A DNA stretch of 64,000 nucleotides from Antedon mediterranea (lineage: Eukaryota > Animalia > Echinodermata): contig NC_092673.1 of the NCBI RefSeq assembly GCF_964355755.1, forward strand, positions 8,742,001 through 8,806,000, given 5' to 3'. Below are positions 3,588 to 63,650 of this stretch, piece after piece. Made by a program: the position numbers and the translations under genes. Position 1 is the first letter of the stretch; each line of letters opens with the position of its first letter. The notes beneath the pieces are model-generated. The model was not told the DNA's origin. It ran no database searches and saw only the letters and a program-made list of their open reading frames with translations.

Positions 3588-4173
3588 CTAGGCCTAGTAG
3601 GCCTACTAAGCTAGGCCTACCATGGAGTAAAGAATAATTATTCTTTACTCCATGGGCCTACTATACTTGGCTACTACTAGTTACAGTAGTACATGGAGGT
3701 ATAATAGTACTACTAATAATACTATACTAGGCCTACTTCAGTACTGTACACAATGTATTTTATTGACTTTATTAAACATATATATATATCAGTTAGAACG
3801 GTTAAAGTAAGTAATCATCGATTCGCCATTTCGTTTAAAAGAACGTAGGCCTATCACATTCAATCTGTTTAAAAAGAGAATAAATTACATAATAATGTAG
3901 ATTGTTATTTACTTCCGAGGTAAAGAAAACCTGTCGAAACAATGACAATCAAAGATTACAAAACAACGACAATCAAAGCCCACACGGCGTTCCATACAGA
4001 TTACCGTTATTGAACTAGCGGCCGCTTTGGTTGGCGGCCGCTTCGACCGTAATCCGTACTAGTATGCATGTTCCCCATACTGTACCTCCATGATAAATCA
4101 TCATATTGTTGTGATTTTCAGTCAGCACTGTGATGGCCTAATAAGTACAGCAACTAGGCTTACCTTATTAGTC

Positions 4174-6206
4174 GAGTGTTGACAAAGTGCGAGGCAAGCG
4201 AGGCATGCCAAATATTTGTGCGAGGCATCATTTTATCATTTCCAAAAGTGCGAGGCATATAGTTTACAATTTCAAAAAGGTGCGAGGCATATCTTAACGT
4301 GCTATTATGATATATTATAGGCCTAATAATCAATCGATACAAGCGTATCTAAAAAGATTCGTGTATACACTCATCATGTTGTTTATTTTTATGTAACGAT
4401 TGTTTTTTCATTCAAGTCATATCGTGTCAAATTTTACTTTTACAAAAGTGCCCAAACTACGGTTCAAAAATCTGAACGACAGTCTTCAACTTTCGATAAA
4501 CAATAATTGTTATAGCGACACACTCATCAAATGACTGCAATGTTTGTTGGCATTTCGAGCGTGTTCACTCACATGTCTCTCGAACATAGCAGAGTGAAAA
4601 TAATATTTTGTCACACCCCTGCGCCTAGATCCGGTAGACCCGAGAGATGGACAATCCCTCTTTACTATTTAGCAGGTAGCGGAATGATTCAGCCCTCAGC
4701 TCAGAGGATTGTGGTGCATTCCCCTCCTATAGCACGTGGTTTCAGCAGCAACGCACAGACTTCTCTCTGAGCGGCGTGCCAAAGACATTTTTGACATTCC
4801 ATTCTCTAGGAACAACACGTGTACCTCTCTCGCAAATAAGGTGAACAGCGATTGCCAGGACAAGTTCAATAACTGGCGGTGAATAAAAGGTAACTGATAT
4901 GCCGATCCAATAACATGCCGCAAAGAAAAAAATTGCGACAGAATTCTGGAGCGCGTGTGAAAAAAGACTTACGTCCGACAATTGTAATACTAGGCCTAAA
5001 ATTAAACTTTAGCTAATATGCTTAGCCCTAACCTAGATAAGAGGCCTATGTAGAAAATAATTTAATCAATTTTGATAAAATAATAATTGGTGTAATATTT
5101 AATAATGATACACTATTCCTGTTTTAGTAAGCTAGGTATATTACGAACGATTTTTATTTATTGTTGTCCATGTACGTACTAATAAACCTGGCGCTAGTTT
5201 CCTTCGCTTGTATTTTTACTCCAAATTTGATAACTAACTTTATCGTGTGAATACCACACCTTAGAAGTATACCTCATAAGTACTTTAATGAAAGAATCAC
5301 ATAAAAAGTAACAAATAAATCCTTAAATTAATGATTTTACAGGCGTGTTTCTCGCACACTGTTCGCGAATTTCACTTATTTAATGTTCAATATTTTTGTT
5401 TCTATGGAGCGCCAAAAGAGCAACGATAATAGAGGACTAAAACTCAGTGGAATGCGTCAATTTCTCATGCATTTATTGGTGAAAAACACGTTTTATTTCA
5501 ATATATTTGTTAATTTGTCAATAAAAATGTTGTAATATGTTACTGCTGATACTGTTCTGTTTTCAAAGAATAATAATCGATCCTAAATCAACATCACTAC
5601 CTAGTCTAGACATAGGACATCCTACTAAGGATATTATGATGAATTTTTCTATTTTATTCTTTAAAAGGTTAACGAAACCGTGTACATTATCAACAGTAAC
5701 ATTTTTCCTTACTGACAGTGACAAAATCTATTGAAATTGTACTTGATTTTCACCAAATAATGCGTTAAATATAAATGGATTCCACAGAGTTTTTAGCCCT
5801 CTAATTAATTTTGCTCTTTTGGCGTTCCATAGAAACCAAAATATTGAACATTGAGTGTGCGAAATGCGAGAAAAACAACGTCTGTAAAATCACCAATTTA
5901 ATGGATTTATTGTTACTTTTATGTGATTTTTCTTCATTAAAGTAGGCCTACTAATTCTAAGCTGTGGTATTCAGGATAAAGCCTTGGTTAAATTACAAGG
6001 CAGGTGCAAAAGGAAACTAGCCTAGCGGGCCTAGGCCTAGGCTACTTCAATTTCGGTGATTTCCTGCCTTGCAATTTTGAGAAATGATAAAATGATGCCT
6101 CGCATTTTTTGATGATGGTAAAACGATGCCTCGCATAAATTTCTGACTTGCCTCGCATGCCTTCCCTGCCTCGCGTGCCTCGCTGCCTCGCACTTTGTTA
6201 CTACCC
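4174..6206. mobile_element. Non-autonomous MULE-like TIR element inserted in 3' LTR of element B
   Basis: 9-bp TSD TTATTAGTC (4165-4173, 6207-6215). Imperfect TIRs GAGTGTTGACAAAGTGCGAGGCA / GGGTAGTAACAAAGTGCGAGGCA with subterminal GCGAGGCA repeats. No transposase ORF. Confidence 0.8.
5190..6020. repeat. Foldback/MITE module (long imperfect inverted repeat)
   Basis: ~5190-5490 is inverted at ~5745-6020 (e.g. TTTCTATGGAGCGCCAAAAGAGCA vs TGCTCTTTTGGCGTTCCATAGAAA). The same module recurs at ~27385-27997. Confidence 0.7.
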
Positions 6207-6506
6207 TTATTAGTCCCACTTTACTGTAAATCACACACAGTGTAGATGAGCAAGTCCAGGTGAATATATATAATCGGTATCTTATTTATTTAATTTATTT
6301 ATTCGGTATATAAAAATATATTACAAAACAACAGTCAAGGACTGAAATGAATTGTATTACAAATAACTAAAAATTAGTTAAAATTGCTATAAAAATAGAA
6401 ACATCTTATTAAAATTAGATATCGTACCATAAAATTACAAACATACATGAATAAAAAACCTTAAAACATTCACTTATTACATATCTAAAAAAGAACTAGT
6501 GGTGCC

Positions 6507-6683
6507 TATTATGTTTTGTTTGTTGTCGCTACACTGTACTCAAACAGACGTACATAGGACTACCGTTAAACACAATCCAAATAACATTTATTCAACATAT
6601 CAACTATCGTGACTCGCGTCCATGTTAAAACCCTCCCTCGATCCCCGCTAGGTGGCGCTAGATCGATATTGCATACTACCACA
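6507..6683 (-). repeat. 3' LTR of element A
   Basis: 177 bp, identical to 11236-11412. Confidence 0.96.
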
Positions 6684-6904
6684 TCTCCCTTTTTCTTAGA
6701 GATTGATTAATCAGCTTTATAATTTTAAGTCGCGCAGCAACTAAACTTTAATTTTAAACACAAATTAACATTTAGAGTAAGATCATGTCAATCATTGAAT
6801 TTCCATCTGTGTTTCAATAAAGGTCCGATATTGTTCATTATCAATCAGTGTTCAGTGTTTTTATTTTTGGTGAGTGATTATAGATCAGTGTTCATTATAT
6901 GAAA

Positions 6905-9900
6905 TTAGGATGTTACATATTCATCCAAATAACGTGGTCTTCGCCGGTTCCGTTGTGGTCTGGTATTTGATGGTGTTGATGCTTCCGGTGGCTTCGGGTT
7001 GTTGCGGATGTCCGCTTCAGTTGGCGTTCCCGCATCGCTGGATTGATCGTGATTGGTTGGAGTTTGGTTTTCCTTCACCTCACCATCTCTCTCCTTTGGT
7101 TGTTCTTGCATCATCACATCGTTGTTAGTGAGCTTCCGTGTCATTGCACGATTTCTTCTCACTGTTTTTCCATCCGTATCGATGTACACGGACCTGGGTG
7201 CCTTGTGGTATCCCGTGATTGTTCCGTGACGTTTCAAGTCCGGTATATATACTTTGTCACCCGGACTTAGTTGTTCCGCATCTGCAGCTCTGTGACGGTT
7301 GTCAAAGTTTCTCTTCATTTCACGTCTATATCTCTCCTCTTTCTGTCTAAGGTCAGTCTGGTCTGGTAGTTTTGGTCGGAGCTCTTCTGGGTGACATGGC
7401 ACTCTTGTCTTTAGTCTCCGACTCATATTCAACTGTGTTGGTGAATACCCATTATGAAGTGGTGTGTTACGGTACTGTAGCATTGCCAAATACTCATCGT
7501 CACACTTGTTCATGAAGGATTTGATGGTTTGTACTGCTCGTTCCGCCTCGCCGTTTGACTGTGGGAAATGAGGGGATGATGTTACATGTTCAAATCTCCA
7601 GCTCTGTGCAAATGCTTTGAATTCGTCAGAGCTGTATTGTGGTCCATTGTCTGAGAACAGGACGTCTGGTATGCCTTGACGACTGAATATTTTCTTCAAT
7701 TTGGCAACAGTTTCTTTCGTATCTACATTCTTTGTGACAATGCAGACCTCAATGTCTCTTGAGTAATAATCTACAGCAAGTAGATAGTTACGTCCATTGT
7801 AATGGAAAAAGTCGGTACCAACTCTAGACCATGGTCGGTTTGGGAACTCTGTTCCTCGCATTGGTTCTGCTTGACTTCTCCTGTATCTTGCGCACATCTC
7901 GCAGTTCCTCACAACTTTCTCTATGTCTCTCGATATCCCTGGCCACCATACTGAAGACATTGCATTTGCTCTCATCTTTGTAATTCCTTGGTGACTGTCA
8001 TGTAGACAACGTAGAATATCTGTTCTGAGTTTTGGAGGGATTACTAGACGTTTGCTCTTTAGGAGGAGGCCTTCATGTACAGAAAGGCTACCTCTTTCTT
8101 TCCAGTAGCTGTGCAGATAGCCGGATGCCTCTGATTTCTCGTTCCATCCTTCTTGAACATGGTACATCACCATTTTTAGAGTGTCATCTTTTCGCAGTTC
8201 TGACCTTATCTCCTCCAGTCTCTTGTCTGATGCTGGTAGAGTCACCATCACGCTGTTTACGAAACATTCTACCTCATTCCTTAACTTTTCTTCACGGTCG
8301 ATCTCTTCGTTTGCACGTCTTTCTTTGTGCCTCGGCGATCTTGACAGTGCATCGGCTGTGTATAATAACTTCCCGGGCACATGGTTTATATCAAAGTTAA
8401 ACCTCATCAGACGCATTCGGAATCTCTGAACTCGTATAGGGAGTTCGTCAATGTTCTTGGTAGAGAAAAGTGGAACCAATGGTTTGTGGTCGGTTTGGAC
8501 TCTAAACTTGAGTCCCACTAACAGATCGGCCCAATGTTCAAGTGACCATGTGGTGGCAAGTGCTTCTTTTTCTATTTGTGCATATCTGCGTTCCGTTGCC
8601 GTCATGGATCTACTTGCATAGGCTACTGGTCTCAGCTCGCCATTTTCTTGTTTCTGTAGAAGCACAGCACCTAGTCCAAAACTGCTCGCATCGGCTGATA
8701 TAACGGTTTCTTTTGTGGTGCTGTAGAGTTTCAGTACTCTGTCTGAGCTTAGTTCATTCTGTATCTTGACGAATGTTTCTTGTTGAGCTTGGTCCCAAAC
8801 CCATTCATTTTCCTTCTTCATGAGATCCCGTAATGGTTTGGTGGTCTCTGCCAGGTTAGGAACGAATTTCATCTGTTGGTTTACCATTCCTAGGAACTGT
8901 CTGAGTTCCGTGACATTGGTGGGTGGTTGCATTTTCATAATTGCTTCGATTTTCTTTGGGTCTTTTCTCAATCCTTCACCATCGATTATCTGGCCCAAGT
9001 AATCCAGTTTCGTCTGAGAGAATTTGCATTTCGCACTATTTAGAGTTAGACCACTTTTGTCTAATCTCTTCAGTACTGCATTGAGCCTATTGTCGTGCTC
9101 TGTCTGATTGCTGCCAGTGATCAGAATGTCGTCCATATGACATACAACACCTTCTAGACCTCTCAGCTCTCGGTCCATCTGCTTTTGGAAGTACTCCGGT
9201 GCTGACGATATCCCATAAGGAAGACGTTTAAACACATACCTCCCAAAAGGTGTAATGAAGGTAGTTAATTTTGTGCTTTCTAGGCTCAGCTTCACCTGGT
9301 GAAACCCTGAGTTTGCATCGAGTTTTGAGAACACTGTTCCATTCGCCACCTTACCAAGTGTCTCTTCTACCTTTGGCATATGATATAGTTCTCTTCGTAC
9401 TGACTGATTCAGCTTCGTTAAGTCAACACAAATTCGTACATCTCCATTTTGCTTCGGCACCACAACTATAGGTGCGCACCAGTCGGTTGGTTCATCGATT
9501 GGTTCGATAACTTCAAGTTGCACCATCCTCTCTAACTCTGCCTTTGTCTTTTCAAGCAGTGGTAGGGCAATTCTTCTTGGTGTTGTAAGGCAAAATGGTT
9601 TGGTATCTTCTTTCAGTTTGATGGTGTATTCACCGTCTAATTTACCAAGGCCTCTGAATAGTCCTGGGTATTCTTCCTTTATTTTCTCCTTTGTAATTGG
9701 AGAATTGACGTCAACTGCTTTCACACTATAGGTTCCTGGTATCTCATGGATCAGTCCAAGGTTGCGAATTGCTGGAACTCCTAGCAGTAGTGTTGTTGCG
9801 TTCTCGACTATATATACTCTTTCTTCTATCTCCGAGTTGTTTCCATGTTGTTGTTTCAGCTTCATGTCCACAAATCCTCGTGTTTTCAGTGGTGTATCGC

Positions 9901-10987
9901 CTGTACCCACTAGCGTCTTGTCGGTTGGGAACATTTCTCCGAATCGGTTTTGATACACTATATTTGGCATCACTGAAACTTGTGCACCGGTATCAATACA
10001 CCATGACAGTTCTTGATCGGCTGCTCTGAGTTTGATGTGCCATCCAAGTTGTTTGTGTGCGTCTTTCAACTGTGACCTGTTAACTTGTTGGACACTAACA
10101 CCACTTATCAGGAAAGGGTGTTCGTCATCGACTTGGTTGACTCTGCTTGATCGGCTTGCAGTTGATCTACACACTACCTTATAGTGACCAGTTTTTCCGC
10201 ATGCATTACAAGTTGCTGATTTTGCTGGACAGTTCTGTTTTCCATATGGGTGAGACTTTCCACAATATCCACATTTCTGACATTTCCCCTCATTCGTTTG
10301 TGGGCGGGCTGCCTTGTTGTGTGAGTATTGTTTCTTGGTTTGCCCCTGCGTTGCTGGTCTCGGCTTTGTTTTAGGTCGGACTTGGTCAATGGTTGCGGTT
10401 TTAGACTTCTGGAGTTCTTGACTAGTTGCCTCTTTCAGTGCAAGGATTCTAGTAGTTTTAGTCAAGGATAACTTTGCACCCTCGTCGTATAATTTCAGCT
10501 TGTAGCTGTCGTTAGTACAAGAAAATGTTAATTTGTCTCTAACTGCTTCTTCTTGAAATTCCTTTGGGAATTTACACTCTGCCGCCCTTTCTTTCACAGT
10601 CGTGACCCATGAATCAAATGACTGGCCTGGTTCTCGCTGTAAGTGATGCCAGAACCGTTGCCGTAACATTAGTTGTGGGTCGCGCCGAGAAAAGTGTTCG
10701 TCAAATTTGTTCATTATGACTGTGTAGTCGTTCGGATCCTCAGCTGGGATTTCTTCTTCATTTTCTGGATTTTGCATTGCAGGCTTGAATTTAAAATTTG
10801 TGTAGATGTCAATGCTGTTATCGCCTATACAGTTTAGCAACAGACCTACTTTGATTTCGGTTTCTTTCTTTGAGTTCCCTGTTGCTTTGAGGTAAATCTC
10901 AAATTTCCTCTTCCACTTGTTCCATGCGTGTGATGGATTACTGCCATCTACAATTAATGTTTCAGGTGGCTTTATGAACGTTGCCAT
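6905..10987 (-). CDS. Gag-Pol polyprotein of element A (1360 aa from the first ATG)
   Basis: Uninterrupted ORF: Zn knuckles (CGYCGKSH..C, CNACGKTGHYKVVC), protease IDTGA, RT (LPYG, HMDD), RNase H (ADAS...TDHKPL), integrase HHCC plus DDE core (DFF, SDNGPQY, SNGEAER). Confidence 0.96.
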   Translation of the reverse strand: MATFIKPPETLIVDGSNPSHAWNKWKRKFEIYLKATGNSKKETEIKVGLLLNCIGDNSIDIYTNFKFKPAMQNPENEEEIPAEDPNDYTVIMNKFDEHFSRRDPQLMLRQRFWHHLQREPGQSFDSWVTTVKERAAECKFPKEFQEEAVRDKLTFSCTNDSYKLKLYDEGAKLSLTKTTRILALKEATSQELQKSKTATIDQVRPKTKPRPATQGQTKKQYSHNKAARPQTNEGKCQKCGYCGKSHPYGKQNCPAKSATCNACGKTGHYKVVCRSTASRSSRVNQVDDEHPFLISGVSVQQVNRSQLKDAHKQLGWHIKLRAADQELSWCIDTGAQVSVMPNIVYQNRFGEMFPTDKTLVGTGDTPLKTRGFVDMKLKQQHGNNSEIEERVYIVENATTLLLGVPAIRNLGLIHEIPGTYSVKAVDVNSPITKEKIKEEYPGLFRGLGKLDGEYTIKLKEDTKPFCLTTPRRIALPLLEKTKAELERMVQLEVIEPIDEPTDWCAPIVVVPKQNGDVRICVDLTKLNQSVRRELYHMPKVEETLGKVANGTVFSKLDANSGFHQVKLSLESTKLTTFITPFGRYVFKRLPYGISSAPEYFQKQMDRELRGLEGVVCHMDDILITGSNQTEHDNRLNAVLKRLDKSGLTLNSAKCKFSQTKLDYLGQIIDGEGLRKDPKKIEAIMKMQPPTNVTELRQFLGMVNQQMKFVPNLAETTKPLRDLMKKENEWVWDQAQQETFVKIQNELSSDRVLKLYSTTKETVISADASSFGLGAVLLQKQENGELRPVAYASRSMTATERRYAQIEKEALATTWSLEHWADLLVGLKFRVQTDHKPLVPLFSTKNIDELPIRVQRFRMRLMRFNFDINHVPGKLLYTADALSRSPRHKERRANEEIDREEKLRNEVECFVNSVMVTLPASDKRLEEIRSELRKDDTLKMVMYHVQEGWNEKSEASGYLHSYWKERGSLSVHEGLLLKSKRLVIPPKLRTDILRCLHDSHQGITKMRANAMSSVWWPGISRDIEKVVRNCEMCARYRRSQAEPMRGTEFPNRPWSRVGTDFFHYNGRNYLLAVDYYSRDIEVCIVTKNVDTKETVAKLKKIFSRQGIPDVLFSDNGPQYSSDEFKAFAQSWRFEHVTSSPHFPQSNGEAERAVQTIKSFMNKCDDEYLAMLQYRNTPLHNGYSPTQLNMSRRLKTRVPCHPEELRPKLPDQTDLRQKEERYRREMKRNFDNRHRAADAEQLSPGDKVYIPDLKRHGTITGYHKAPRSVYIDTDGKTVRRNRAMTRKLTNNDVMMQEQPKERDGEVKENQTPTNHDQSSDAGTPTEADIRNNPKPPEASTPSNTRPQRNRRRPRYLDEYVTS

Positions 10988-11235
10988 AATTATTCTTATA
11001 ATTACTGAATAACTTACGGAGTTCAAATCTCTTTAATTCCTAGGCTAGGCTGTGCGGTTTACTGCGTAGCAACCTGTTTACAATCGTCCGCTGTCGTGCG
11101 TCGTTGTGTGAGCGTTCAACCGCTCTCGCTATTCTCGCTAGGCTAGGCTACCGCTGGGGTAGGTATCTCGGAAATCGATCGTTACTGACCTTTCTGAGCG
11201 TTGGATGAGTCGATCCAGACACACTTCTGACACTA

Positions 11236-11412
11236 TATTATGTTTTGTTTGTTGTCGCTACACTGTACTCAAACAGACGTACATAGGACTACCGTTAAAC
11301 ACAATCCAAATAACATTTATTCAACATATCAACTATCGTGACTCGCGTCCATGTTAAAACCCTCCCTCGATCCCCGCTAGGTGGCGCTAGATCGATATTG
11401 CATACTACCACA
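11236..11412 (-). repeat. 5' LTR of element A
   Basis: 177 bp, identical to 6507-6683, adjacent to the PBS. Confidence 0.96.
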
Positions 11413-12211
11413 GTGCCTATTATTATATCCACCATGGTGGGAACTGGAGACAACCTAAGTCTGCTGGTTTTACAATGAGGTACTTCTAGAAAGCGGTTGA
11501 ACCTGAGAGACCGAGCTGGCTTATGAAGAGAGGGAAGTATTTCTCTAAACAGCTCGGATTTTAATAAGCCTTCCCCGAAAGACAACACAAGTTTGTTTCT
11601 TCTCTCAACAAGAGTTGGTAAACCAGTAACAGACAATGCATGATCATAGCACAAATAGTTGTTACCTAGCATGATTCGCAAAGCTCTCTTTTGTACCTTT
11701 TCAATAGACTTGGACATGTCCTTAGTGATAGCGCCATGCCAAACAGGGGCAGCATATTCTAAAATAGGTCTTATATACGCCATATAAACAGTCAACAGAT
11801 CATTAATTAAGATTCCTGCTTTCTTCAAAATGCACAAGGAAAATAAATGTCTAGAAGCTCTAGACACAATAGGCCGTCTTGTTTGCTTGGTTCCCTGCTT
11901 CGAATAGACCGGTTCGGGTGGCGTTGAGGTCCCACATTAACATTTGCATACACCCTGTATGCAAATCAAGGTCGGAGGGTGGTCTGTTTACCCAGCGGGC
12001 GCCGTTCACAACACTCCCGTGTTTGAAAAGCGGGCACCCTGTCCTGGATCCACCTCGGAGGTGAACCGGGTGATTTTCGTACGTGAAAAATACCCGATAC
12101 CCGTAGCTATGTAGACCGCTCCCAACGATCTCTTCAGGTGGTCAATGGCCATGGAACATACCAGTAGCACAGTCCTCCGCTTCCCTGGATACCTGAAAGA
12201 TATAAATGAAA

Positions 12212-13433
12212 ACTAGACTTGAACTCGTCACTTTGACGAGTTCGGGTTATCCGCGCAAACGCAACATGCAGATACTTTAAACTATATGAACCTCGACAAT
12301 TATTATGCCATCCTATGACATGAAATAAATATGTTTACAGTGCTGAATTGTACCTATTATGTAGCATATATCATACTACAGTATTTTACAGAATAAACTG
12401 TATATGTTATATACAGTGTAGCATAGACAAAATTACGAGACCCATCCTTTAAATCCAATTATTAACACGATGACGTCATCAAATCTACATAATATAAAGA
12501 TAACAATTTTAGAAGATAATTATCTAAATAATTACATTAAAACAAATTTGAAGAATTTTGGGCACGTAAAAGTGAGATGCGCTCTATTTAATGTGATGAG
12601 CAATAACGAAAGAGTAAAAAACCCTATATTTTACATTCGTGTGGCCATACGATGACGTTATAACATCCTAGGGGTAAAGATTCTGCATGAATTCATATCT
12701 ACAACATATCTACTTACATATACAATTTAAAAAATTGGGGGTCGTGGATGATCCTGAGGAGCTATAATAGATTCAAAATTGGCATTATTTTGACAATATT
12801 TTCAACTAAAACGCGCGCAAATGGTATAAATCAACGTGTTCGTATGACGTTATTTTAATTTCAAATGATGTCAATCTTTTTAAAATGACTAGGAAAGGTT
12901 GGAAAATCATAATTCAAGAGAAAAAAACATGATTTTTATGCTCCGTGCGCACCATATGCGTAAATTTGTTCGCGCGCGCGGGAATTTTTGACATGCTCAA
13001 AATGTCATGATCAGCGTAGAAAGTTGATTAGAAATTAATTTTGCGCATTTTGAAACTTTAAATGCGCGTGCGCGCGTAACTTCTTGTGAAACATGCCATT
13101 TTTAATCCATAGAAAGTTTGCCCTTGATATGACTTAAATTTTCACCAAGTGTCAATACAAAATGACTTTTGGTTTATAATCTATGACCAATCATTGAAAT
13201 TCATTAAATCGCGCGTAACTTACGCTACGCGACTCTAACGTCATATAACAAAGTTTCCTGCACATCTACAGCTACAGGTCAATCTTATGACAAAGTTATA
13301 CAAAGTTATGTCTACAAACATTTGAGATATAGCTGCAACAAAAATCCGGGAAAGAAAGAAGAATAAAGATGAAGAAAAAGAAACGTGACAATAACAAGGG
13401 TTATCCGCAACTTACTAGTTGCGGATAACCAAT
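12212..13433 (-). mobile_element. Helentron/HINE (DINE-1-like) non-autonomous element in 3' UTR of element B
   Basis: On -: 5' GGTTATCCGC followed by its inverted copy (13399-13430). 3' subterminal GCGGATAACC, then hairpin GAACTCGTCA-AAG-TGACGAGTTC and a CTAGT end, within T-runs. No TSD. Confidence 0.72.
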
Positions 13434-13516
13434 AAATGTAAAACGGAACTATTCTCTTTTCAAACTGAAAATTTCTGGGAAAACTGAAAACTTCTGGTTG
13501 TGGGTGAGCCAGGGGC

Positions 13517-14347
13517 TCAAAGGAGATCTCGACCGTTCTTTCATGTCAGATCAATGACCTGCATGGGGCTCCGGTCAAGCACCTGTCCCACGGCGACGGT
13601 GGTCGCCCACAACAGATGAGGTGCTCCGACTGGATATCCGGCAGGAGGATAGTCCGGTCCGTTGGACCCCATCAGCAGTCGCTGATCTTCGTTTGTGGTG
13701 ATGAAACGCAGGCCCTTGCGTTGATCGGCTGTAAAGCCCGTCACTCTGCTGGTCACACTAAAGTATGTCCTGGGGAAATGCCGGAGGTAAGCGGTTGCTA
13801 TGTCTTCCGTAGATGCGTAGTCTGCCAGAAGCAGCCGCTGTTCCTTCGAAACGCGACTTAGACGTAAGATGTCAAAGACGCGGTAGTAGCACTCCTTCCC
13901 AGTGACATCGCCTTGAATTCCAGTAATTTCCAGGCACAGGATGCGGTGGTGGCGGGCGTCCAAGCAACGACCCAACACCCTCTTTAGCAGCTGATCTGGT
14001 CTTGGCCATTGCATAGGCGGGGCCGAATGGTCCAATACCACTCTCCCGATTACTCGAACATCTCGAGATCGGGCTAAGGCCAGAAGCCTATCGAATTGGA
14101 TCGTTGTCGGCGAGTAGCCAGGAGCCACTCCCATGCCTACCATACAGCCGTTCCTCGCCAATCCGACAATCTCCCGCTCGGTGGGGTAAGTGGTTAGATC
14201 GGCAAATAGAGCAATCCCGCCTACCACTTCCACAGGCCGAGTTCCACTTTTCACCCACACCACTTGCACTACGTCCCAGAGGTCCGCCCGTCGAGAAAGT
14301 TGCAGGTCCCTCTGCAGCCGATCCAGATGGAAACAGGCGTGAAACAC
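13517..14347 (-). pseudogene. TatD-like TIM-barrel (metallo-hydrolase fold) accessory ORF of element B
   Basis: Colinear degenerate TatD motifs: VFHACFHLDRL (DxHxHLD), GMGVAP (GxHP), VIGRVVLDH (IGExGLD), YFSVT, RLLMGSNGPDY (RLLxETDxPY), C-terminal T*KNGRDLL (TxxNAxxLF) with a premature TGA at 13541. Confidence 0.72.
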
Positions 14348-14419
14348 TTTGGGCGCCGAACCAAGCGAGGCCGATGTTTCCTGCACAATCGGTGGCGCCG
14401 CCACTGATTTACCATCCTT

Positions 14420-14547
14420 AGGTGCCAGGGCAGGACAGATGGTGCAATATTCACACATGCACCGTGGTACCACACCTCGCAATAGTCACATTGTATCATA
14501 AATGAGCCGGCCCAGGGCTGGCGACATAAACAATCCTGCATCATCAT
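14420..14547 (-). pseudogene. PHD finger following integrase of element B (frameshifted)
   Basis: CLCRQPWAGSFMIQCDYCEVWYHGACVNI matches the C4HC3 PHD pattern; the last Cys pair is disrupted. Confidence 0.85.
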
Positions 14548-17500
14548 CTGTAGGTGAAGGAAAAGAAGGTAAATTAAAATAAGCCAGCCATTTAGGAAGT
14601 TGTCGATCCCGACAGGGCTTCAGCTTGTCATGATTTAAAACCACCGTCTTATTTCTCAGCTGCACCTGAAATAAACAAGAACTAATAACCTTACTAATAA
14701 TAATACCGGGCCCCTTCCAGGGGGGACACAGTTTCTTGCACTTCCCCGAGGGGTAGCGTTGTCAAGAACGTAGACTTTGTCCCCACATTGGTATGGACGT
14801 TCCAGTACTCGAAGATCATAGTCCCGTTTCATTCTCTTCTGAGTTTGCTTTAGCGTTTCCCTAGCGATGCCATGGGCATCCCAAATCGCTTTTACCAAAT
14901 CTACAATGTAGGTGGTGGCTTCCTGCTCATCAGTGGGCCGGCATTCTCCGAACATGAGATCAGCTGGTTAGTTAACCTCTCGGCCCAGCATCAGCATGTT
15001 TGGAGTAAAACAAGTTGAGCGGTTCACCGTGGCGCGTAGTGCACCAGCAATCTGCGGCAGATAGACATCCCAGTCTCGCTGTCTCTTCCCAACGAAGCAT
15101 CGTACAGCATCCATTAGTGTGCGATTAAATCGCTCTACTTGACCATTAGCCGCCGGTCGGTAGCTTGTCGTTCGGGTCTTGAGACGGGAGCGGGCTGATT
15201 TGAACCCATTTTGTGAATTGGTCGACCATCATCAAAATGTAGATGTTTCCCGGTTCAGTTTTTGGTAACGGGCCGAGGAAATCGATATTTACGCGGGCTG
15301 GAATTCGGTCGACCTTGGCAAGTGGCCTTCTTGCTACCATTACAAATATTGCAAGTCTGTACATACCTCTGTATATCCCCGCTCATACCATACCAGAAAA
15401 ACTTCTCCTTCAGTCGAAACTTGGTCCGGGCGACCCCTTGATGACCCGCCGATGGCAAATCATGATGTAGCTTGAGAGCTACGGCGTGTAGCTCCTTGGG
15501 CAACACAAGTAGTCGTCCGGTACCATCTGCTTGGTTGATGAACAGTATACCTGCTTCCTTGGCCTGTTCAGCCAGTAGTGTTTGGTGGCAACGCTGAAGA
15601 TAAACATCTGATTCTCGGAGGGTTCCCCATTCTGCAACCAGTCCAGAACAGGTGCCAAGTCAGGACCGCTCGTTTGATGTCGCCTTAGCTCGTCCAGTGA
15701 GTAACCCCAACACTCGGCTCCCTTCGGCCGTAGCTGTACTGCAGCCACTCGTCCACCGTCGTCCTGTAGAAAAGAAAACTGAATTGTACCATTAGTAGCA
15801 GTCCGTGATACCTTTATACTTACCTGTCCACCGGGGTCCCCTGGTAGGGTACCCTCCGGGTGGTCCACGGCTACCTGGTGTACGTGGGCTATGGCCACAA
15901 CGTTGTCTACTTCATCCTGGAACGCTGACCATCTTGCATTCGCTCGTTGACAGTACGAACAGCCCCCACAGGGAAGCACCTCAAGCGCAGGCCGTTTCGC
16001 AGTTTCTGGTCGGCGAGAAAGAGCATCGGCGTTGCCATGGTGTTGTCCTCGGCGGGGTTCAATCAGTAGGTGGTACTGGCTCAGCTCAATCCACCGAGCG
16101 AGTTGCCCCTGTGGTTGCTTGAAGTTGAGGAGCCCGGTCAGGCTGTTGTGATCGGTCTGCACTCTAAAAAGGTCTGCCTAGAAGGTAGTGCCTAAAATGC
16201 CTTGTCATGAACACAATTGCAAGCAACTCCTTGCGTGTAGTGCAATAGTTCCGTTGTTCATGAGTTAGACGGGCACTTGCATATGCAATTACCTTCTCTT
16301 TACCTTCTTGTACCTGGAGCAGCTCGCCTCCTAGCGCTTGATCTGAAGCATCGACATCCAGAATAAATTCATCAGTCCTGTTCGGCAAGGCGAGTAGAGA
16401 AGGTTGAACGAGAGCAGCTTTCAGGCCGGTGAACGCTTCAACGTTCATCATCCCAGTGAAACTTCACCTCTTTTTTAGTTATTTCATATAAAGGTGCAGC
16501 TAAACCAGCAAAGTTCTCAATGAACTCTCTATGGTAGTTAGCCAACCCCAAGAACTGCTGTACTTCTCTCAGATTGGTAGGTGTCGCCCAGTCCTAAACA
16601 ACCTTTATATCCGAATAGGACACCGCCACAGTATCCTCACCAACGATTCGCCCTAAAAATTCAACCTGTTTCTGAAAGAAAATACACTTTTTAGGTTTAA
16701 GTTTAAAGTTGTTAATACGAAATCGTTGCAGAACCTGAGAGAGGTTGCTGAGATGATCTTCCACGTCAATCCCCGGAGCACCAAACCATGGCACGGGAGA
16801 AAGTTGCAGGACAATTGGTACGGCCAAATGGCATTTTAACGAATTCATATAGGCCATGCTTGGTGATAAACGCTGTCTTCTTACGGTCTTCATCTTTCAT
16901 CCTAATCTGCCAGTACCCCCAAATCGCGTCCAGTTTAGAAAACCAGATATTCCCCAACAGTGTGTCAAGGCAATCACTAATCAGAGGTAATGGATACCCA
17001 TCTTTAGTAGTGATGTTGTTGAGAGCCCTATAGTCAATGCAAAAGCGCACAGAACCATCGCGCTTCCGGACCAACACAGGAGGTAATGCCCACTCGGACA
17101 TGGATGGTTGAATAACACCAGCCTCCAACAACTTCTTTATCTCCTTCCCTTCTTCCCCCGCAAAGCGCAGAGGAGTATGGCGGAGCCGTTGCCTGATTGG
17201 TGAGGCATCTCCAGTGTCGATGCTGTGTTCAATATCACCAAAGGTGCCAATGTCGAATTGATGAGTGGCGAAGACATCCTGGTAATCAACCAATAGCTTA
17301 GTGAGCGCATCAGTCTCTTCAATTGAGAGGTTAGATCTTAAAGAGTCCAACATGCCCACTAGGTGCACCGGCACCCCCTCGGGCTGGTTACCTTGGTTCG
17401 ACAAAGCATCATCGGTCGGAGTCGCCTCCGTCTTGAACACACTCACCCCTGCAGCTTCCTTCCCTTGCCGTACCTAATTGCCTACCCTTTTTCATAGTGA

Positions 17501-18228
17501 GGTAGTGGTCAGATGTGTTGATGACACAGATGCATGGCGCATCAGTGCGTAGATGTAAAGTTGCCGGTATCGCCACATCGTCAGTAGTTGAAACTGGCTC
17601 TATAAAGAAATCAGGCATAGACAAATTGTTAGTCACAAGTTTACATTTAACATGAGCGGCTGAGTGAAGAGGAATTACTCTCCGTTTAGCCACTGTTACC
17701 TGGACAACCTTAGGTTCCACCGGTGAATCCCCTCTTAGAGATATGGTACTGCCCCCAATTGCCAGAAGCAAATTTCCACAATCGATAACGGCTCCCTGTG
17801 GATGAAGAAAATCACCACCCAGGAGCATATCATCATTGATGGGGGCAACATAAAAGAATTCATGGTACTCTTTGGTTCCCAATGTAAACTATAGAGGCCC
17901 CACCCTCGAAACCTGGCATCGATGTCCCCCTCCCTGCCAAAGTAAAGGACAGGGTGGACACCACAGGTGGTGCTGGATCTAGACTTTTATAAACCTTATC
18001 GGATAGTATAGTAAATCCGTCAATTTTTGTACCATTTACAAAAGTAGTTGCAGGCAGCGCATTCAACGATTTTACCCTGTTGATAACAATCCGAGTTTGA
18101 TTCTCTTCAGTTTTGGTTGTCGTCGGTGTAGATGATTCAATCAGCCCTGAGCTAATTGTAGACGGCTCGATGATCGTCACAGGATCCGGTGCTACCTCCT
18201 CCGTATTTACAGGCTTAGGCTTGGCCAT
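14548..18228 (-). pseudogene. Degenerate pol of element B (PR-RT-RH-IN)
   Basis: Frameshifted fragments: RT (VRFCIDYRALN, SKLDAIWGYWQI, MPFG), RNase H (DASDQALG, TRKELLA, TDHNSL), integrase HHCC (HDLPSAGHQG..CNIC), core (IDFLGPL, VDQFTKW), GPY/F (WKGP...HDKLKP). Confidence 0.92.
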
Positions 18229-18229
18229 C

Positions 18230-20189
18230 GGGCCTAGCTTGGAGGTAGTTGACGAGCCATCTTCTTCCTGGCCAGCTTCCGGAACTGGGTTAGGTCGTCG
18301 GCCATCTGACCCAACCCCTAATCGTTTAACCGATCCTGCTCATTGCCACTAACCTGACGCAGACGGCTTGCTAATCTCGGACAATCCCTGCAGAAATGTC
18401 CCACCTCCTTATATTCAAAGCAAGCTACTTCGCTTGGTCACATGAAACGCATGAGCTGATCCAGTTGATTCCGCATGGCGGCAATCTCCGTGTTCGTCCC
18501 AGATTGGTGTTCAACGTCTGGAAATTACTCTCCACAGCGTCCAAATGGGCCTCCGTAGTAGGAGTATTGTTGGTGGGTGGCACCAATGTCACAGTTCGAG
18601 GCTGGTTCTGGCCGTCAGTAGGTGCGGGTTCCGGAGGAACCCGAGCTGGTGCTGGCCTCTGGAACGTTACACGGTTTCCCCTCATAGGCCTTCCTCGCAC
18701 CTGCTTAATGGACACCTCATCGCCACCTCATCAACCTCGTTATCGTCCTGGTCTTCTGAAGGTAGCTGAAAAGATAGTAGGGGTGCAAAAGAAGTACGGA
18801 CCATGGACCTAACATGAGGTTTCACGGTATCCTTAACCTTACTCTTACGTTTACTATAGTCCCCTATAACTATCATATTTTTCAAACTCCCTAATAGCTC
18901 TGGGGATACTAGAACAGTGCTTGTGCATGGCGTGCCTATCTACTTCTGCGTCCCTGCACCTAATACAAAACCTAACTACAGCCTGCTCCTGGATCCACTC
19001 CTTGGGTAAATCCTTAAACGCCTTTCTAGTCAGGGTTAGCACTCTATCTCCCCATTCCTCTATAGTCTCTCCCTCATATTGCGTAGCGGTCTCTAATTTA
19101 GCTTGGAGGACTGCGGGGAGCTAGTCCTCATTAAAGCGTCTGTTGAAAGCTTTAATGATTTGCCTAAAGCCCATATCAACATCCATTTCTATTAGATTCA
19201 CATAGAACTCAGCCACCGCTCCGTCTAAACACCAAGTAAGGACGTCCTTACTTTCACGGTTTATGAGTTCCTGCTCATCTATAAATGAAGCCAATCGTCG
19301 CTTTAAAAAAAGACCAGTTGTCTCCCCTACCCCTAAACGTTAGAGACCTAGTATCTTTTATTATGCATCCTTCTACGTTCTAAAAGACATTGTCGGCCTT
19401 CATAGTGCCTGGTTCTCGGGGTAGTCCTAAGACACTCCACTGCTGTCCTAGCCCATGCACTATGTCTATCAGACTCTCAACTCCTGCTAAGATCAGTATC
19501 AGTTACCATCTCTACTAAGGTCACTATCGCTGGTCGATGGAGATCGACAGCGAGCCCTAGTTTTAGACCTAGCGGTTTTAGATAGTCTCCTGGGGAGTCT
19601 TTCCTCCTCGTCCTCCCTAGAGCTAAAACACGAATCTAAGGTTATTGGAGATGGCTTTTTGATGTAGCTCCTCCGTTGTGTTGACCTACTCTTACTTCTA
19701 TCCTGGTCAGAACGCCCAGCGGAGGTGGACGGCATATAAGCCCTAAGCCCACCTTCGAGATGCCGAGGATCACTAGCAGGTCCTGCAGTATAATACGTAC
19801 CTGGTACGTCTAATAAAGGAGTAGCCTGGGGCGATGAGAGGACGTGATATCGACGACTATGGCCCCTGTCATTTTGCACCAGGTATGCCCCTTCCATATC
19901 TGCAGGTTGTGAGACCTGCGACCCCCTTCTGGCAGCTCACCAGAGGTGACACATTATCAATCATCTGGCCTACGCCTCCACCTAAACTCGGATTCGGTTG
20001 AAAATCCAGGTAGTCGACTAACCTGGCAGTACCGGCTACTCCGTGTATCTGGTGAATAATAGAAGACGTAGTATTGCCGTGGGTAGACCGCCATTTAATT
20101 ATTCTATTTGCTCGTTTCTTCCCTACATTAGGGACTCCATAAAGGTCTTGCACTGGGCAAAAGTTAACTAGAATCTTAATAGACAACAT
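18230..20189 (-). pseudogene. Degenerate gag of element B with N-terminal ComEA-like HhH motif
   Basis: N-terminal VNFCPVQDLYGVPNVGKKRANRIIKWRSTHG, then an SR-rich linker, capsid-like fragments, and a degenerate knuckle CFEYKEVGHFCRDC (~18380-18423). Confidence 0.78.
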
Positions 20190-21107
20190 GATCTCAAAAT
20201 GGTCTCTCTTCTATTGGGTTGTTATGCTTCTAAATCTAGTTACAGTGTATGACAGGAGTGTACGATACAAATTAAAATACTGCTAGACGTAATGAAAATT
20301 ACAGGCCCAACAGTATAGTCAAATATCGTCAATGCAGTACACACACACAATATTGCAAAATGACTGTTGGAGATACAAATATAATTAAAATATTTCACCA
20401 GCAAACCTGCAATGAAAAGCAACTAGATTATTTAAAAAGACCTCAATCAATCAATGAATCAATCAGATTTATATAGCGCCAGTATCCATAGTAATGTTCA
20501 AGGGCGCTTGACAAAAGTTAAGCAGGAAATGCCTCTGTGTAAAAATGGGTCGTCAATACAGTTAACAACACTTACCACTAAACCTTCCCCCGATGCAAAG
20601 AAAGGAGAGCGATAATGCCACTGTGAGGTTAACACAATATAATACGTACAGTCAGTATACTTTTTCAAGGTGAAAAACCTGACTAACGGACGAAAAGATG
20701 TTATCAATAAAAAAACAATCAAGATAAACATTAGTGGTGCCACTCAGTTCGCCGGCCACGCCTAGTATCCCACTAGGTGATACGGCTTAATAAACTGCCC
20801 ACTAATACTTCAACTATAGCCAAAAAATACAACTCCTGGTACGTATCGACTAACCCTGTCGATACGCTAATCAGTAAGTATCCAAATGCCACAATACTGC
20901 GTGATTAACTTTACCGGTATGTTATACCTTCAATAAATATACCAACTTCAATAAACTATTACAAATGCACCGTATGTACAATAAGTTAATAGGTTTCGGA
21001 GGACGAAATACCTCGCGATCGACCCAATCACGTTAACAATTCCCAGCAATCAAGGTTCCCGCCTCTCCAAAAAAAAAAATATTCCGAGCTTTTGCTCGCA
21101 GCGCCAA

Positions 21108-21404
21108 TGTTGTGATTTTCAGTCAGCACTCTGATGGTCTAATAAGTACAGCAACTAGGCTTACCTTATTAGTCCCGCTTTACTGTAATCACACAGTGTA
21201 GATGAGCAAGTCCAAGTCAATATATATAATCGGTATCTTCCGTCTTGTTTGCTTGGTTCCCTGTTTTGAATAGACCGGTTCGGGTGGCGTCGAGGTCCCA
21301 CATTAACATTTGCATACGCCCTATATGCAAATCAAGCTATCGGGGCGACGCCCTCGTTCGGTCGGAGGGGTGGTCTGTTTACCCAGCGGGCGCCGTTCAC
21401 AACA
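21108..21404 (-). repeat. 5' LTR of element B (297 bp)
   Basis: Matches the three left-LTR pieces with several substitutions and a ~24-bp indel; TG...CA ends. Confidence 0.92.
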
Positions 21405-21571
21405 ATATTTATACAGAGCCATATATATATATATTATTATTATAAATCCAAAGGCAAATTACTGAAAAAATGACAATGCTGTGGGTATCAGTGGCTGGAT
21501 CTCAATGGAGATACAAAAATAAAAAGCGAAAAGCTAAATCAAAACGATAAAGTAAACAGCCAGAAAAGTTA

Positions 21572-21608
21572 GCAGAGCTTTCGGGCAACACTAGCCCTTC
21601 ATCAGTGC
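21572..21608 (-). ncRNA. Minimal type I hammerhead ribozyme (Penelope-like element remnant)
   Basis: On -: GCA CTGATGA A GGGC-tagtgtt-GCCC GAAA GCTC TGC. Conserved core with stems I and II. Confidence 0.7.
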
Positions 21609-21634
21609 AGTGCAATATTATTATTATACAAATA

Positions 21635-21830
21635 ATAATATTTATGAGTGTAACGGAACAATCAGGGAGGTGTTTTCACCTCCCTGGAACAATTAATGGC
21701 ATGAGGTGAATGATGAACGGTTATATATCAACGAGGCAACAGCCGAGTTGATATATAACCTTTCATCATTCACCAAATGCCATTATTTGTACCATTACAC
21801 GAATATAAAACATTCATTGTTTTATATAAC
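21635..21830. repeat. Hairpin interspersed repeat (family copies at ~49630-49890)
   Basis: TAATGGCAT..GTGAATGATGAA.GGTTATAT inverted around GAGGC..AGCCGAG; recurs at 49630-49890. Confidence 0.65.
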
Positions 21831-24336
21831 AATAATATCTAAATAGATTCCTGTCATTTGAATCAAATAAAAGGTAGGCCTAGCCAAGGCCTACATTTGA
21901 TTCACATTGATTAAAACAGTAACATTTGGTTTTTAATACTTATATTAAAGCTTATTATTTATATGGATGATTTTATAAATGCACCTACTGTTAGTGTTAT
22001 TTATGTCAACAAACGACCAAACAATCCTAGGCCTAGCAAGGCTAAAACGCCTACTACTAGGCCTAGCTAGGCTGAAAGACAGCAATACGAAACTTCGACA
22101 GGCAAATGGAACTCATCTAGGCTAAAATTATGTTTTTTCCAGCGATTGTAGAGATGTTCCCATTAATTAATCAAAATCCTAAAAATGATCTAAGTTAATT
22201 TAAATGCCTTTTTGATCTAAATTAGTACATAATATTTCTCAAAAAATTTACTTCCATCGCTAAACCAGTCATAAAAATAACATTGGGCGACGAAAGTAAA
22301 AAATAGGTGTCGCTGTTGTATTTCAAAAGTAATAGAATAAAAAAAATATTTTCCAAACGCAAACAGATTTTTTTTTTCGTACACGAAAAAAAAGTACTAT
22401 TAAACGATCGTTATTAGTGCGTACTATTATTGCACGCCATGTGACCAAGAATCATCCAATCAAATAACAGGAATTTATTTAGGTGTTATATAAAAAGAGT
22501 TGTACTTGCGGCAACAAAATATTGCGCGTGCATGCGCTAGTACATTATAAAGTTTGATTGATTGATTTTGGAACAAAACATCCCATAACTACATCTTATA
22601 AATAACAATTACAGTATGTAATATTTTAAATTCATAATGCAGGGCTCGAAATCTACTTTTTTTTCGACTAGCAAACTTTGCTAGTTGTAAAAAATTTAAC
22701 TAGCAAAATCTGTAGCATAACTAGCAATCACAATTTTTTTGGTAAAATAGTTAAATTCTATAAAAAGCTGAATTTAGGTGTAGGCATAATATAGTTAGGT
22801 CAAGTTAGTAGTAGTAGTAGTATCTTTTTTACTCGACAACCGGATGCTTTTTTAGCCAAAGTAAAAAAAACGTTAAAATTATCAAAATTAAAGTGTTAAA
22901 CTTTTAAAATTTTAAGCAGAACAAAAGTGTATGTATAAAATATTATTGCCAATGACAAAACTGAGTTTTAAATTGTTTATATCCAGACGTAATTAAAACA
23001 TTACATTTAATTGCCACCGAGCAAAATTCTAGGCCCTAACTAATCCGTCCAGACTACTGCCACCCGCTTCACTCATCAGCCATGGCGTGTAAATGAAACA
23101 AATGATGTACCGTATATGTTTATTGTGTTTTTGAATAATTTTGTATATAATTTGCAATCAGAAAACAGTTTATTTGATCACTAAATAATTCTTTATTAAA
23201 TATTATTAATAAAATTTGTTAGTATTACCTTATAATAAGAGTAAAGATATAAGGAAGAATATCAAAGAGATTATGAAACAGCTGTTCAAGAATATACTGT
23301 TCAACACCAAGTATTGTAAATTTTAAATGTTAAAACTGTAGCCAATCTTGTCAAAGGTCAAGCGCCTTTAGCCTGTCACGTTTAGATATTCAATATTGAA
23401 CTTGACCTGACGTGATTTCACAATATCTTTATATGGTAGAGTGGATAGAAAATAATTAATTAATTTAAAAATTACCTTTAAAGTTGGTTTTGAACTGAAT
23501 TGATGGATGTGTAGGCCTACTGTTGTTTAAAAGTATGTTTGATAAAAGTTTAGAATGAAATACTTGCGTTCAATGTTCGTGATGTCTAGTTGTGTAGTGT
23601 GATAAGTGTATGATTAAAAGTGTATTGTACATTATACGTAGATCGAAAAATAACGTGGGTTATGGTAGATAGATATAAATAAGTAGTAAAACATCCAAAA
23701 TATATAGTTTGGTATTAATACTTTCATTAGTGTCCGCGCGCATCATCTAATTTCGACTAGCACCATGTGTACTTTTTTGTGTTTATTTCAAGTCCATAAG
23801 GAGCTGCAGTTTTATCATTCCAATACAGTACTAACTGCTAGTACTTAATTAATATGAAATTATATATGTCTCCAGAACCAGCCCCACCATGGCTGGAGCT
23901 GAACTAAGATAATTTCGAATCTAAAATAGCTGCTAGGTCCTCATAAATTGTGGACCTACCTTTTTGGTGGGGTACAGGACATACAAATAAAGAAGGAGGT
24001 GGGGATACAGGATTTCTAAAACGGGGAAGTGCTACTGTAATTAAGAGTGCACATGCATGATTATATTAATACAAATTATCATTTCTGGCTCTCAAGAGAT
24101 CTTCTCCAGTTTATTTAGATCTGGTTAGCTCTCTTGGTGCCAGACACTTTATACTGGTATAATAGAACTAAATGTTACCAATATTTACTATACTGTAGGC
24201 CTACTGTTGTAATAAAAAATTATGAAGAATATTTACTGTTTTAATAGCCTTTTCACTTCACTCAACATTACACTATTTTGTACCACATACACACTAATCC
24301 AATCAACAGTTCAATAATTTAATTGTAGCCAGTAAG

Positions 24337-62638: not shown

Positions 62639-63231
62639 ATTCCCCAGTAGCTGCTATATTATGGTGTGCTGCTGCGCTCTGCTGGGGGATTTGGTAAGCC
62701 GAAGATTAAATAGCCGAAGGCTAGATTGCAATGACCAATGTTATAGCAGTTCAAAAAGTGATTCTCCATGGAGAGGAAACCAACAAGATGGCGGCTGCAA
62801 ATCGACCAGTCAGATATGCCCTACGCGGGTACGCACTACTACGCCTGTGTTGAGCCTCCTGCGTGTGAGAACGATACGCAACGCAGCGCGTTAAGCGTAT
62901 AAACGCGATCAAACGCATTATATATGATCCTCGTATACAAAAAATGCTAGATTTATACCAAGAAATTATTCATTCTATTGCGATTAAGAATTAATTTTAT
63001 AAAAATTTTACTGTGCTTTTACAAGAATATGTGTTGTAATTTATATTAAATAATGTTTTTGAACACATTTTTACCATTTACGGCCGCCATCTTGTTGGTT
63101 CCCCTCCTGCATGTTGGAATCACTTTTCAGTCTGGAGTACGCCCTCTAGCTTTTGGCTTACAGCTCACTGGTAAGAACTCAATATGGGACGCGGGCATAT
63201 GGAACGCCTCTTCTGCCTTCAGTTCACATTT

Positions 63232-63650
63232 ATCATGCAGTACACACCAATCGTCATGCAGTACACACCAATGGTCATGCAGTACACAATAGTCATGCAG
63301 TACAAACCAATGGTCATGCAGTACACACCAATCGTCATGCAGTACACACCAATGGTCATGCAGTACACACCAATGGTCATGCAGTACACACCAAACATCA
63401 TGCAGTACACACCAAACATCATGCAGTACACACCAATCGTCATGCAGTACACACCAATGGTCATGCAGTACACATCAATCATCATGCAGTACACACCAAA
63501 CATCATGCAGTACACACCAAACATCATGCAGTACACACCAATCGTCATGCATGCAGTAGCCTACACACCAATGGTCAAGCAGTACACACCAATGGTCATG
63601 CAGTACACACACCAATCGTCATGCAGTAGGCCTACGCACCAATCGTCATG
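63232..63650. repeat. 21-bp minisatellite (TCATGCAGTACACACCAATGG/ATCG/AACA) x ~19
   Basis: Directly visible; explains the repetitive ORFs. Confidence 0.95.

Follow-up and report, generated by a model that had tools for sequence, protein, structure and literature searches.

A TatD-fold third gene in a Ty3/Gypsy retrotransposon lineage and its ligand-depleted form in the crinoid Antedon mediterranea

Closest described systems

The closest published case to the locus described here is found in the bdelloid LTR retrotransposons Juno and Vesta, which carry DEDDy exonuclease and GDSL esterase ORF3s (PMC5408684, in part). As in those elements, a non-env enzymatic ORF3 of 3'-5' exonuclease type follows pol, with its function unproven, and some GDSL derivatives in the bdelloid Athena elements lack catalytic residues as our frame does (both PMC5408684, in part). 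Unlike Juno and Vesta, the ORF3 studied here carries a TatD TIM barrel and an extra N-terminal domain without a match, the gag has an HhH region and the integrase a PHD finger. The hosts are also different, being echinoderms and molluscs instead of bdelloids.

As for the nuclease, the group II TatDs, that include E. coli YcfH and YjjV and human TATDN2 and TATDN3, have the same fold and the HxH motif (PMC10085689 and PMC10711561, both in part). The long N-terminal extension of the family ORF3 has a parallel in TATDN2 (PMC10711561, in part). Unlike these proteins, the family is element-borne and multi-copy, and the form studied here is without the bridging Glu, the Glu and Asp of the ETD motif and four His.

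Two further groups share parts of the layout. Chromoviruses and CopiaMBD have a reader domain at the integrase C-terminus, here a PHD, but show no TatD ORF3 in the available part of PMC6673714. The env ORF3 of errantiviruses likewise lies between pol and the 3' LTR (PMC13524379, in part), but we found no homology to fusion glycoproteins. An env fusion glycoprotein was rejected as an identity for this ORF3, which is a predicted TatD-fold protein. The errantivirus survey, in its available part, has no env-carrying elements in echinoderms (PMC13524379).

The term TatD appears nowhere in PMC6238403, PMC13524379, PMC6338049, PMC5408684 or PMC10294476, the second and fourth of these being available in part. 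PHD, DNase and nuclease likewise have 0 occurrences in PMC10294476, and TATDN2 in PMC6962438 is merely a gene label in a Hox cluster. No report of TatD in retrotransposons came up in literature searches, as judged from their listings; supplements, Repbase and GyDB may annotate such ORFs. The sequence-only reading did not know the architecture to be described. The locus extends the few known non-env third genes of LTR retrotransposons by one nuclease family.

Host element and TatD-fold frame

The window, meaning the whole 64,000-nucleotide stretch of Antedon mediterranea DNA that was analysed, holds a decayed Gypsy element at 4107-21404 on the minus strand, with the TatD frame between integrase-PHD and the 3' LTR. 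The features below are in window coordinates; L001 is an intact relative described in the next section.

4103..4106, target-site duplication ATAT, left copy (from the sequence)
4107..4173, minus strand, outer piece of the 3' LTR (match to the 5' LTR)
6205..6283, minus strand, middle piece of the 3' LTR, split from the other pieces by nested insertions
11874..12013, minus strand, inner piece of the 3' LTR (match to the 5' LTR)
12014-12018, minus strand, short purine run preceding the inner piece (from the sequence)
13541..14350, minus strand, predicted TatD-fold barrel forming the C-terminal domain of ORF3, substituted at 8 of 9 active-site residues, with a premature stop at 13541-13543
14432..14436, deletion junction, with loss of the PHD end and the ORF3 N-terminal part
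14436..14532, minus strand, truncated PHD finger at the integrase C-terminus (Pfam PF00628, 3.5e-9, profile positions 1-33 of 47)
14440..16171, minus strand, integrase region and linker, with stops, frameshifts and an internal gap at ~15180
16167..17903, minus strand, frameshifted RNase H and reverse transcriptase with the stretch upstream of RT (identity to L001 pol 42-60%)
18300..19339, minus strand, gag remnants, a capsid-like part and a zinc-knuckle region (tblastn with L001 gag, E 8e-19 and 0.009)
19950..20210, minus strand, weak HhH-like gag N-terminus (Pfam HHH_3 1.1e-4, under the cut-off; HhH of KIF22/ComEA, E 0.011-0.6)
21094..21106, minus strand, primer-binding site, its first 11 bases identical to those of L001
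21108..21404, minus strand, 5' LTR, TG...CA (LTR match)
21405..21408, target-site duplication ATAT, right copy (from the sequence)

The element has the marks of a Ty3/Gypsy LTR retrotransposon: TG...CA LTRs, target-site duplication and primer-binding site are all present, and Pfam and tblastn recover the pol order RT-RNase H-integrase. We take the primer-binding sites of this element and of L001 to be of tRNA-Ser type. The pieces of the 3' LTR have 11 mismatches to the 5' LTR in 283 aligned bases. The bounds hold as first read, with the frame between integrase and 3' LTR on the same strand, and the target-site duplication is ATAT. An Rfam search of window 4000-22000 gave no match.

The 3' LTR is split by two insertions, at 4174-6204 and 6284-11873. 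One has inverted ends (78% match) and is probably a DNA transposon, and the other is a LINE-like 3' fragment, labelled by eye and without a Pfam match. Nested in the LINE-like fragment sits a young LTR element (6507-11412, minus strand) whose 177-bp repeats match at 100%; its 1375-aa gag-pol, with RT, RNase H and integrase, is intact. The TatD frame is separated from the 3' LTR by an AT-rich block (12200-13460). Contig depth at 13300-13433 is ~100x that of the element in run X2, and a high-copy repeat is therefore inserted there. Elsewhere in the window, 34767-43274 on the minus strand is an LTR element with 402-bp LTRs at 99.75% identity. Its gag has a SCAN domain and its domains run protease-integrase-RT-RNase H, an order that we take to be Gmr1-like. 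Tandem arrays are found at 61778-62465 (16-bp units) and 63191-63607 (21-bp units).

From stop to stop, the TatD-like frame covers window 13541-14485 on the minus strand and has 314 aa (P0001). It has no start of its own, consisting of the cut PHD fused to the barrel at ~14432-14436. All the TatD motifs that had been read in order in a ~275-aa frame were located in that order at codon level, on the minus strand of the P0001 frame:

14327-14341, minus strand, HACFH
14120-14131, minus strand, GVAP
14042-14047, minus strand, GR
13928-13933, minus strand, LE
13820-13825, minus strand, AD
13661-13669, minus strand, GSN

P0001 by itself has no match in Pfam and no sequence match in the PDB; the Pfam evidence comes through its homologues. 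Three were found among 2571 candidates, an Antedon mediterranea protein 86% identical to P0001 (P0002) and two Anneissia japonica proteins with 51% and 48% identity (P0003 and P0004). All three match PF01026 (E 7e-7 to 6e-27), with 29.3 bits for P0002 against a cut-off of 27, and 95 bits for P0003. A four-sequence profile matches E. coli YcfH with E 6.5e-5.

In the fold comparison TatD structures rank first. The AlphaFold (AF2) model of the P0001 barrel reaches pLDDT 95 with a 71-sequence alignment, and leans on the ligand-intact relatives aligned. The first 16 rows listed by Foldseek for this model are TatD-type entries. With VIA-align, the best TatD structure gives Z 25.2 and rmsd 2.8 with 238 aligned, and nine TatD-type entries lie at Z 21.8-25.2, the next member of the fold reaching 16.8. 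The barrel shares 11-18% identity with solved TatDs. The homologues' PF01026 matches, the profile match to YcfH and the fold model confirm the prediction of a TatD-type TIM barrel at 13541-14350 on the minus strand.

Judged by sequence comparison, what survives as the 275-aa frame is the C-terminal part of a far longer ORF3. On both sides of 14432-14436 the contigs of other copies part from the window and run into unlike sequence. The Pfam match of the window PHD ends at profile position 33 of 47, and the pol of L001 ends in a full PHD. Therefore, a deletion fused PHD to barrel. A natural PHD-TatD fusion was rejected because the junction is a deletion and L001 has two separate ORFs. A six-frame search of the window for the ORF3 N-terminal domain gave no match.

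The frame stops at 13541-13543, ~8 codons short of the ends of its relatives, and all compared contigs of run X2 differ from the window at this stop codon. Differences private to the window copy are 11 nonsynonymous versus 4 synonymous, as expected for neutral decay; this genomic copy is itself decaying, truncated and dead. Many related copies are present in contigs of four public runs (641 contigs aligned in X2). A one-off insertion was rejected on this multi-copy presence and on the same layout in L001.

Intact relative and family

L001 is a metagenome contig of 9035 bases whose ends overlap by 99 bases, and contains a complete element. Its order is an HhH-like gag start, gag with a zinc knuckle, a 1415-aa PR-RT-RH-IN-PHD frame and a separate 712-codon ORF3, which ends in a TatD with all ligands intact. 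The pol is 35-60% identical to the window pol pieces. The HhH regions of the two elements do not align to each other by BLASTP; each weakly matches HhH proteins separately, and both are in the same place. L001, the sole relative whose genomic context was seen, is an independent element and by its gene order confirms the HhH-gag / pol-PHD / TatD-ORF3 architecture. The layout proposed for the window is thus repeated, but in most relatives (102 of 119) the nuclease is intact.

Full-length relatives have ~700-900 aa. Their N-terminus is of low complexity and is followed by a conserved 145-aa Cys/His and helical domain and then by the barrel. The 145-aa domain precedes the barrel in 74 of 75 family proteins of at least 450 aa, a count that is partly circular with the profile built from 40 family members. 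In L001 it is placed as follows:

L001 6241-6675, conserved ORF3 N-terminal domain, zinc-finger-like, with Cys-x4-Cys, His-x4-His and helices

The model of this domain is confident (pLDDT 93). It has no Foldseek match at E<=0.001 and a best Z of 3.5 against solved structures, which is not proof of a new fold. In 12 full-length relatives, TatD is the only convincing Pfam family.

At E<=0.001 the profile search recovered 631 clusters. Among the best 150 of these, the named hosts are crinoids, the sea star Patiria, scallops, clams, pearl oyster and abalone. Many genes that carry a TATDN2-, TATDN3- or YcfH-like annotation in molluscs and echinoderms are probably transposon cargo.

Among solved TatDs, the family profile is nearest to YcfH (1e-37); it matches TATDN3 at 7e-17, with TATDN2 absent from the matches. 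Of 153 family proteins, 114 carry a Cys-Asp-Pro motif, versus 2 of 82 other TatDs from the loci. TATDN2 would also carry this motif, which makes a TATDN2 donor a lead only. The spacing of the motif's Cys fits C538 of TATDN2 relative to E593 (PMC10711561, in part).

A metagenome scan with P0005 gave no match. With the profile, 80 metagenome loci were found, where only L001 and a fragment, L002, scored like family members and the remaining ones looked like ordinary cellular TatDs. A viral scan gave 5 weak TatD loci. Four family members (P0027, P0078, P0192, P0227) are on 1.6-7.5 kb contigs labelled as Candidatus Thiodiazotropha MAGs, which probably represent DNA of the clam host that was binned together with its symbiont.

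Ligand loss and its interpretation

The sequence-only reading described nearly every ligand as replaced. Eight of the nine active-site residues are indeed gone, but the second His of the conserved HxH motif (His53) is kept. The Antedon-type barrel is without the bridging Glu (now Arg), the Glu and Asp of ETD and four His, and retains the scaffold. For 5 of the 8 substitutions the minimum codon distance is 2, which agrees with the claim that several need at least two nucleotide changes.

Most relatives are different. Of 153 aligned proteins, 119 have residues in all six metal-ligand columns, and the other 34 were removed because of gaps. All six ligands are present in 102 of the 119, five in 5, and four or fewer in 12. 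The dead form is therefore a trait of a derived sub-lineage. Considering only columns at least 80% conserved (n=47), the window keeps 1/9 at the active site versus 25/38 elsewhere (Fisher p=0.006), as expected if the scaffold was kept while ligands were lost. The Anneissia protein P0003 keeps 9/9 and 31/38 in the same columns. Other family members with ligand losses are P0037, P0039, P0078, P0115, P0140 and P0006, the first three forming a supported clade with a long stem.

The losses are not a product of post-insertion decay, which was rejected as their cause and had already been doubted in the first reading. P0002 has the window's residues at all six active-site positions it covers (its N-terminus differs, leaving DxHxH uncovered), and the losses common to both are therefore older than the window insertion. 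The 99 contigs of run X2 that are at least 80% alike show 51 differences reaching 30%; among the 40 of 51 listed, none is in the nine active-site codons, and no indel reaches 30%. A ligand-intact Antedon subfamily may exist below 80% likeness or among the 11 unlisted differences. The tree places the Antedon pair with ligand-intact Anneissia proteins in a crinoid clade (SH-aLRT 100, stem 0.58). This was a quick tree of 26 of the 153 family proteins and L001, with 16 other metagenome-loci TatDs, presumed prokaryotic, as outgroup and host TATDN proteins not included. The nesting of the pair among ligand-intact proteins indicates that the loss is derived. Intact and disarmed forms in related crinoid elements make a natural pair, in which the function of an enzymatic ORF3 becomes testable.

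In TATDN1 and TATDN3, Ala at the bridging Glu lowers both activities (PMC10085689, in part), and E593A or E705A abolishes the R-loop activity of TATDN2 (PMC10711561, in part). Since the window replacements include such activity-critical positions, we strongly infer that the Antedon barrel is catalytically dead. An active group II TatD nuclease was rejected as an identity for it, the HxH, the bridging Glu, and the two His and Asp ligands being absent except for the second HxH His.

Selection on the barrel was assessed from the listed differences, scored one by one with an assumed transition weight. Differences not private to the window copy are 16 nonsynonymous and 11 synonymous in one set of X2 rows (pN/pS 0.67, p=0.20), and 19 and 17 in pooled rows (pN/pS 0.51, p=0.034). 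These values point to purifying selection among copies, a signal that is modest, since the ratios cover the listed differences and the transition weight is assumed. Where the two Antedon sequences share a residue, their identity to P0003 declines as columns become less conserved in the family (29/37, 25/46, 61/123), which argues that the scaffold stayed constrained. This gradient along the Antedon stem is better evidence of a kept fold than pN/pS. Furthermore, covered active-site positions changed in 6 of 6 cases versus about half of the variable positions (1/64, by hand). The barrel has a net charge of +7, the family mean being -2 (SD 6) and intact P0003 having +5; the charge, similar to that of P0003, is uninformative.

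We consider it probable that the barrel of the Antedon lineage is retained, free of metal, as a module that binds without cutting within a larger ORF3 protein. The ancestral ORF3 would have been captured from a group II TatD (TATDN2/YcfH-like). Going by TatD biochemistry, it would have acted as an accessory 3' exonuclease or hybrid-processing nuclease, trimming or clearing the RNA:DNA hybrids and 3' ends that the element itself produces, or R-loops where the element is transcribed. This activity may have become dispensable or harmful in the Antedon lineage, and the barrel with the N-terminal domain would be kept to hold intermediates or partner proteins without cutting. The human TATDN2 barrel alone has no detectable R-loop binding and its E593A mutant binds weakly (PMC10711561, in part), which counts against a stand-alone binding domain.

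A bolder extension is possible but doubtful. It sees an undescribed Gypsy lineage, widespread in marine invertebrates, with a captured TATDN2-like nuclease and a zinc-binding domain of new fold. Sub-lineages (Antedon; P0037/P0039/P0078; P0115/P0140) would repeatedly and actively have turned the nuclease into a metal-free clamp shielding reverse-transcription or R-loop intermediates from host nucleases.

The strongest rival to a retained binding module is relaxed selection, which we find rather unlikely. Catalysis would simply have been lost, with the barrel a stable passenger of an ORF3 that works through its N-terminal domain, or slowly eroding in a still-copying element. The long Antedon stem (0.58), a pN/pS of only ~0.5-0.7, the 12 of 119 relatives with four or fewer ligands and the poor binding of the dead TATDN2 barrel (PMC10711561, in part) would all suit it. 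It sits less well with a near-complete active-site loss beside kept scaffold columns (p=0.006), with the two base changes required at 5 of 8 positions, with the lack of common indels in the X2 contigs, and with the same residues in a second Antedon sequence 86% identical.

A rewired site is improbable. Here Cys51, His53, Glu186, Asp222 and Arg148 would bind a metal or small ligand by a new mode and support a different chemistry. Several replacements are polar or potential ligands, His53 is kept, and amidohydrolase barrels, which are among the structure matches, host many chemistries; yet Arg takes the place of the bridging carboxylate and three positions are Ala or Gly.

Lastly, the decoy suggested in the first reading, in which host TATDN nucleases would restrict the element and the dead barrel would titrate their partners or substrates, is very improbable: pseudo-nucleases with kept binding roles are known in Maelstrom and EXD1 (PMC5408684, in part), and the family's Cys-Asp-Pro motif, which TATDN2 would share, has a Cys spacing that fits TATDN2 C538, but the literature consulted gave no link of TATDN to retrotransposon restriction, the 11-18% identity to solved TatDs is low for mimicry, and most relatives are intact enzymes.
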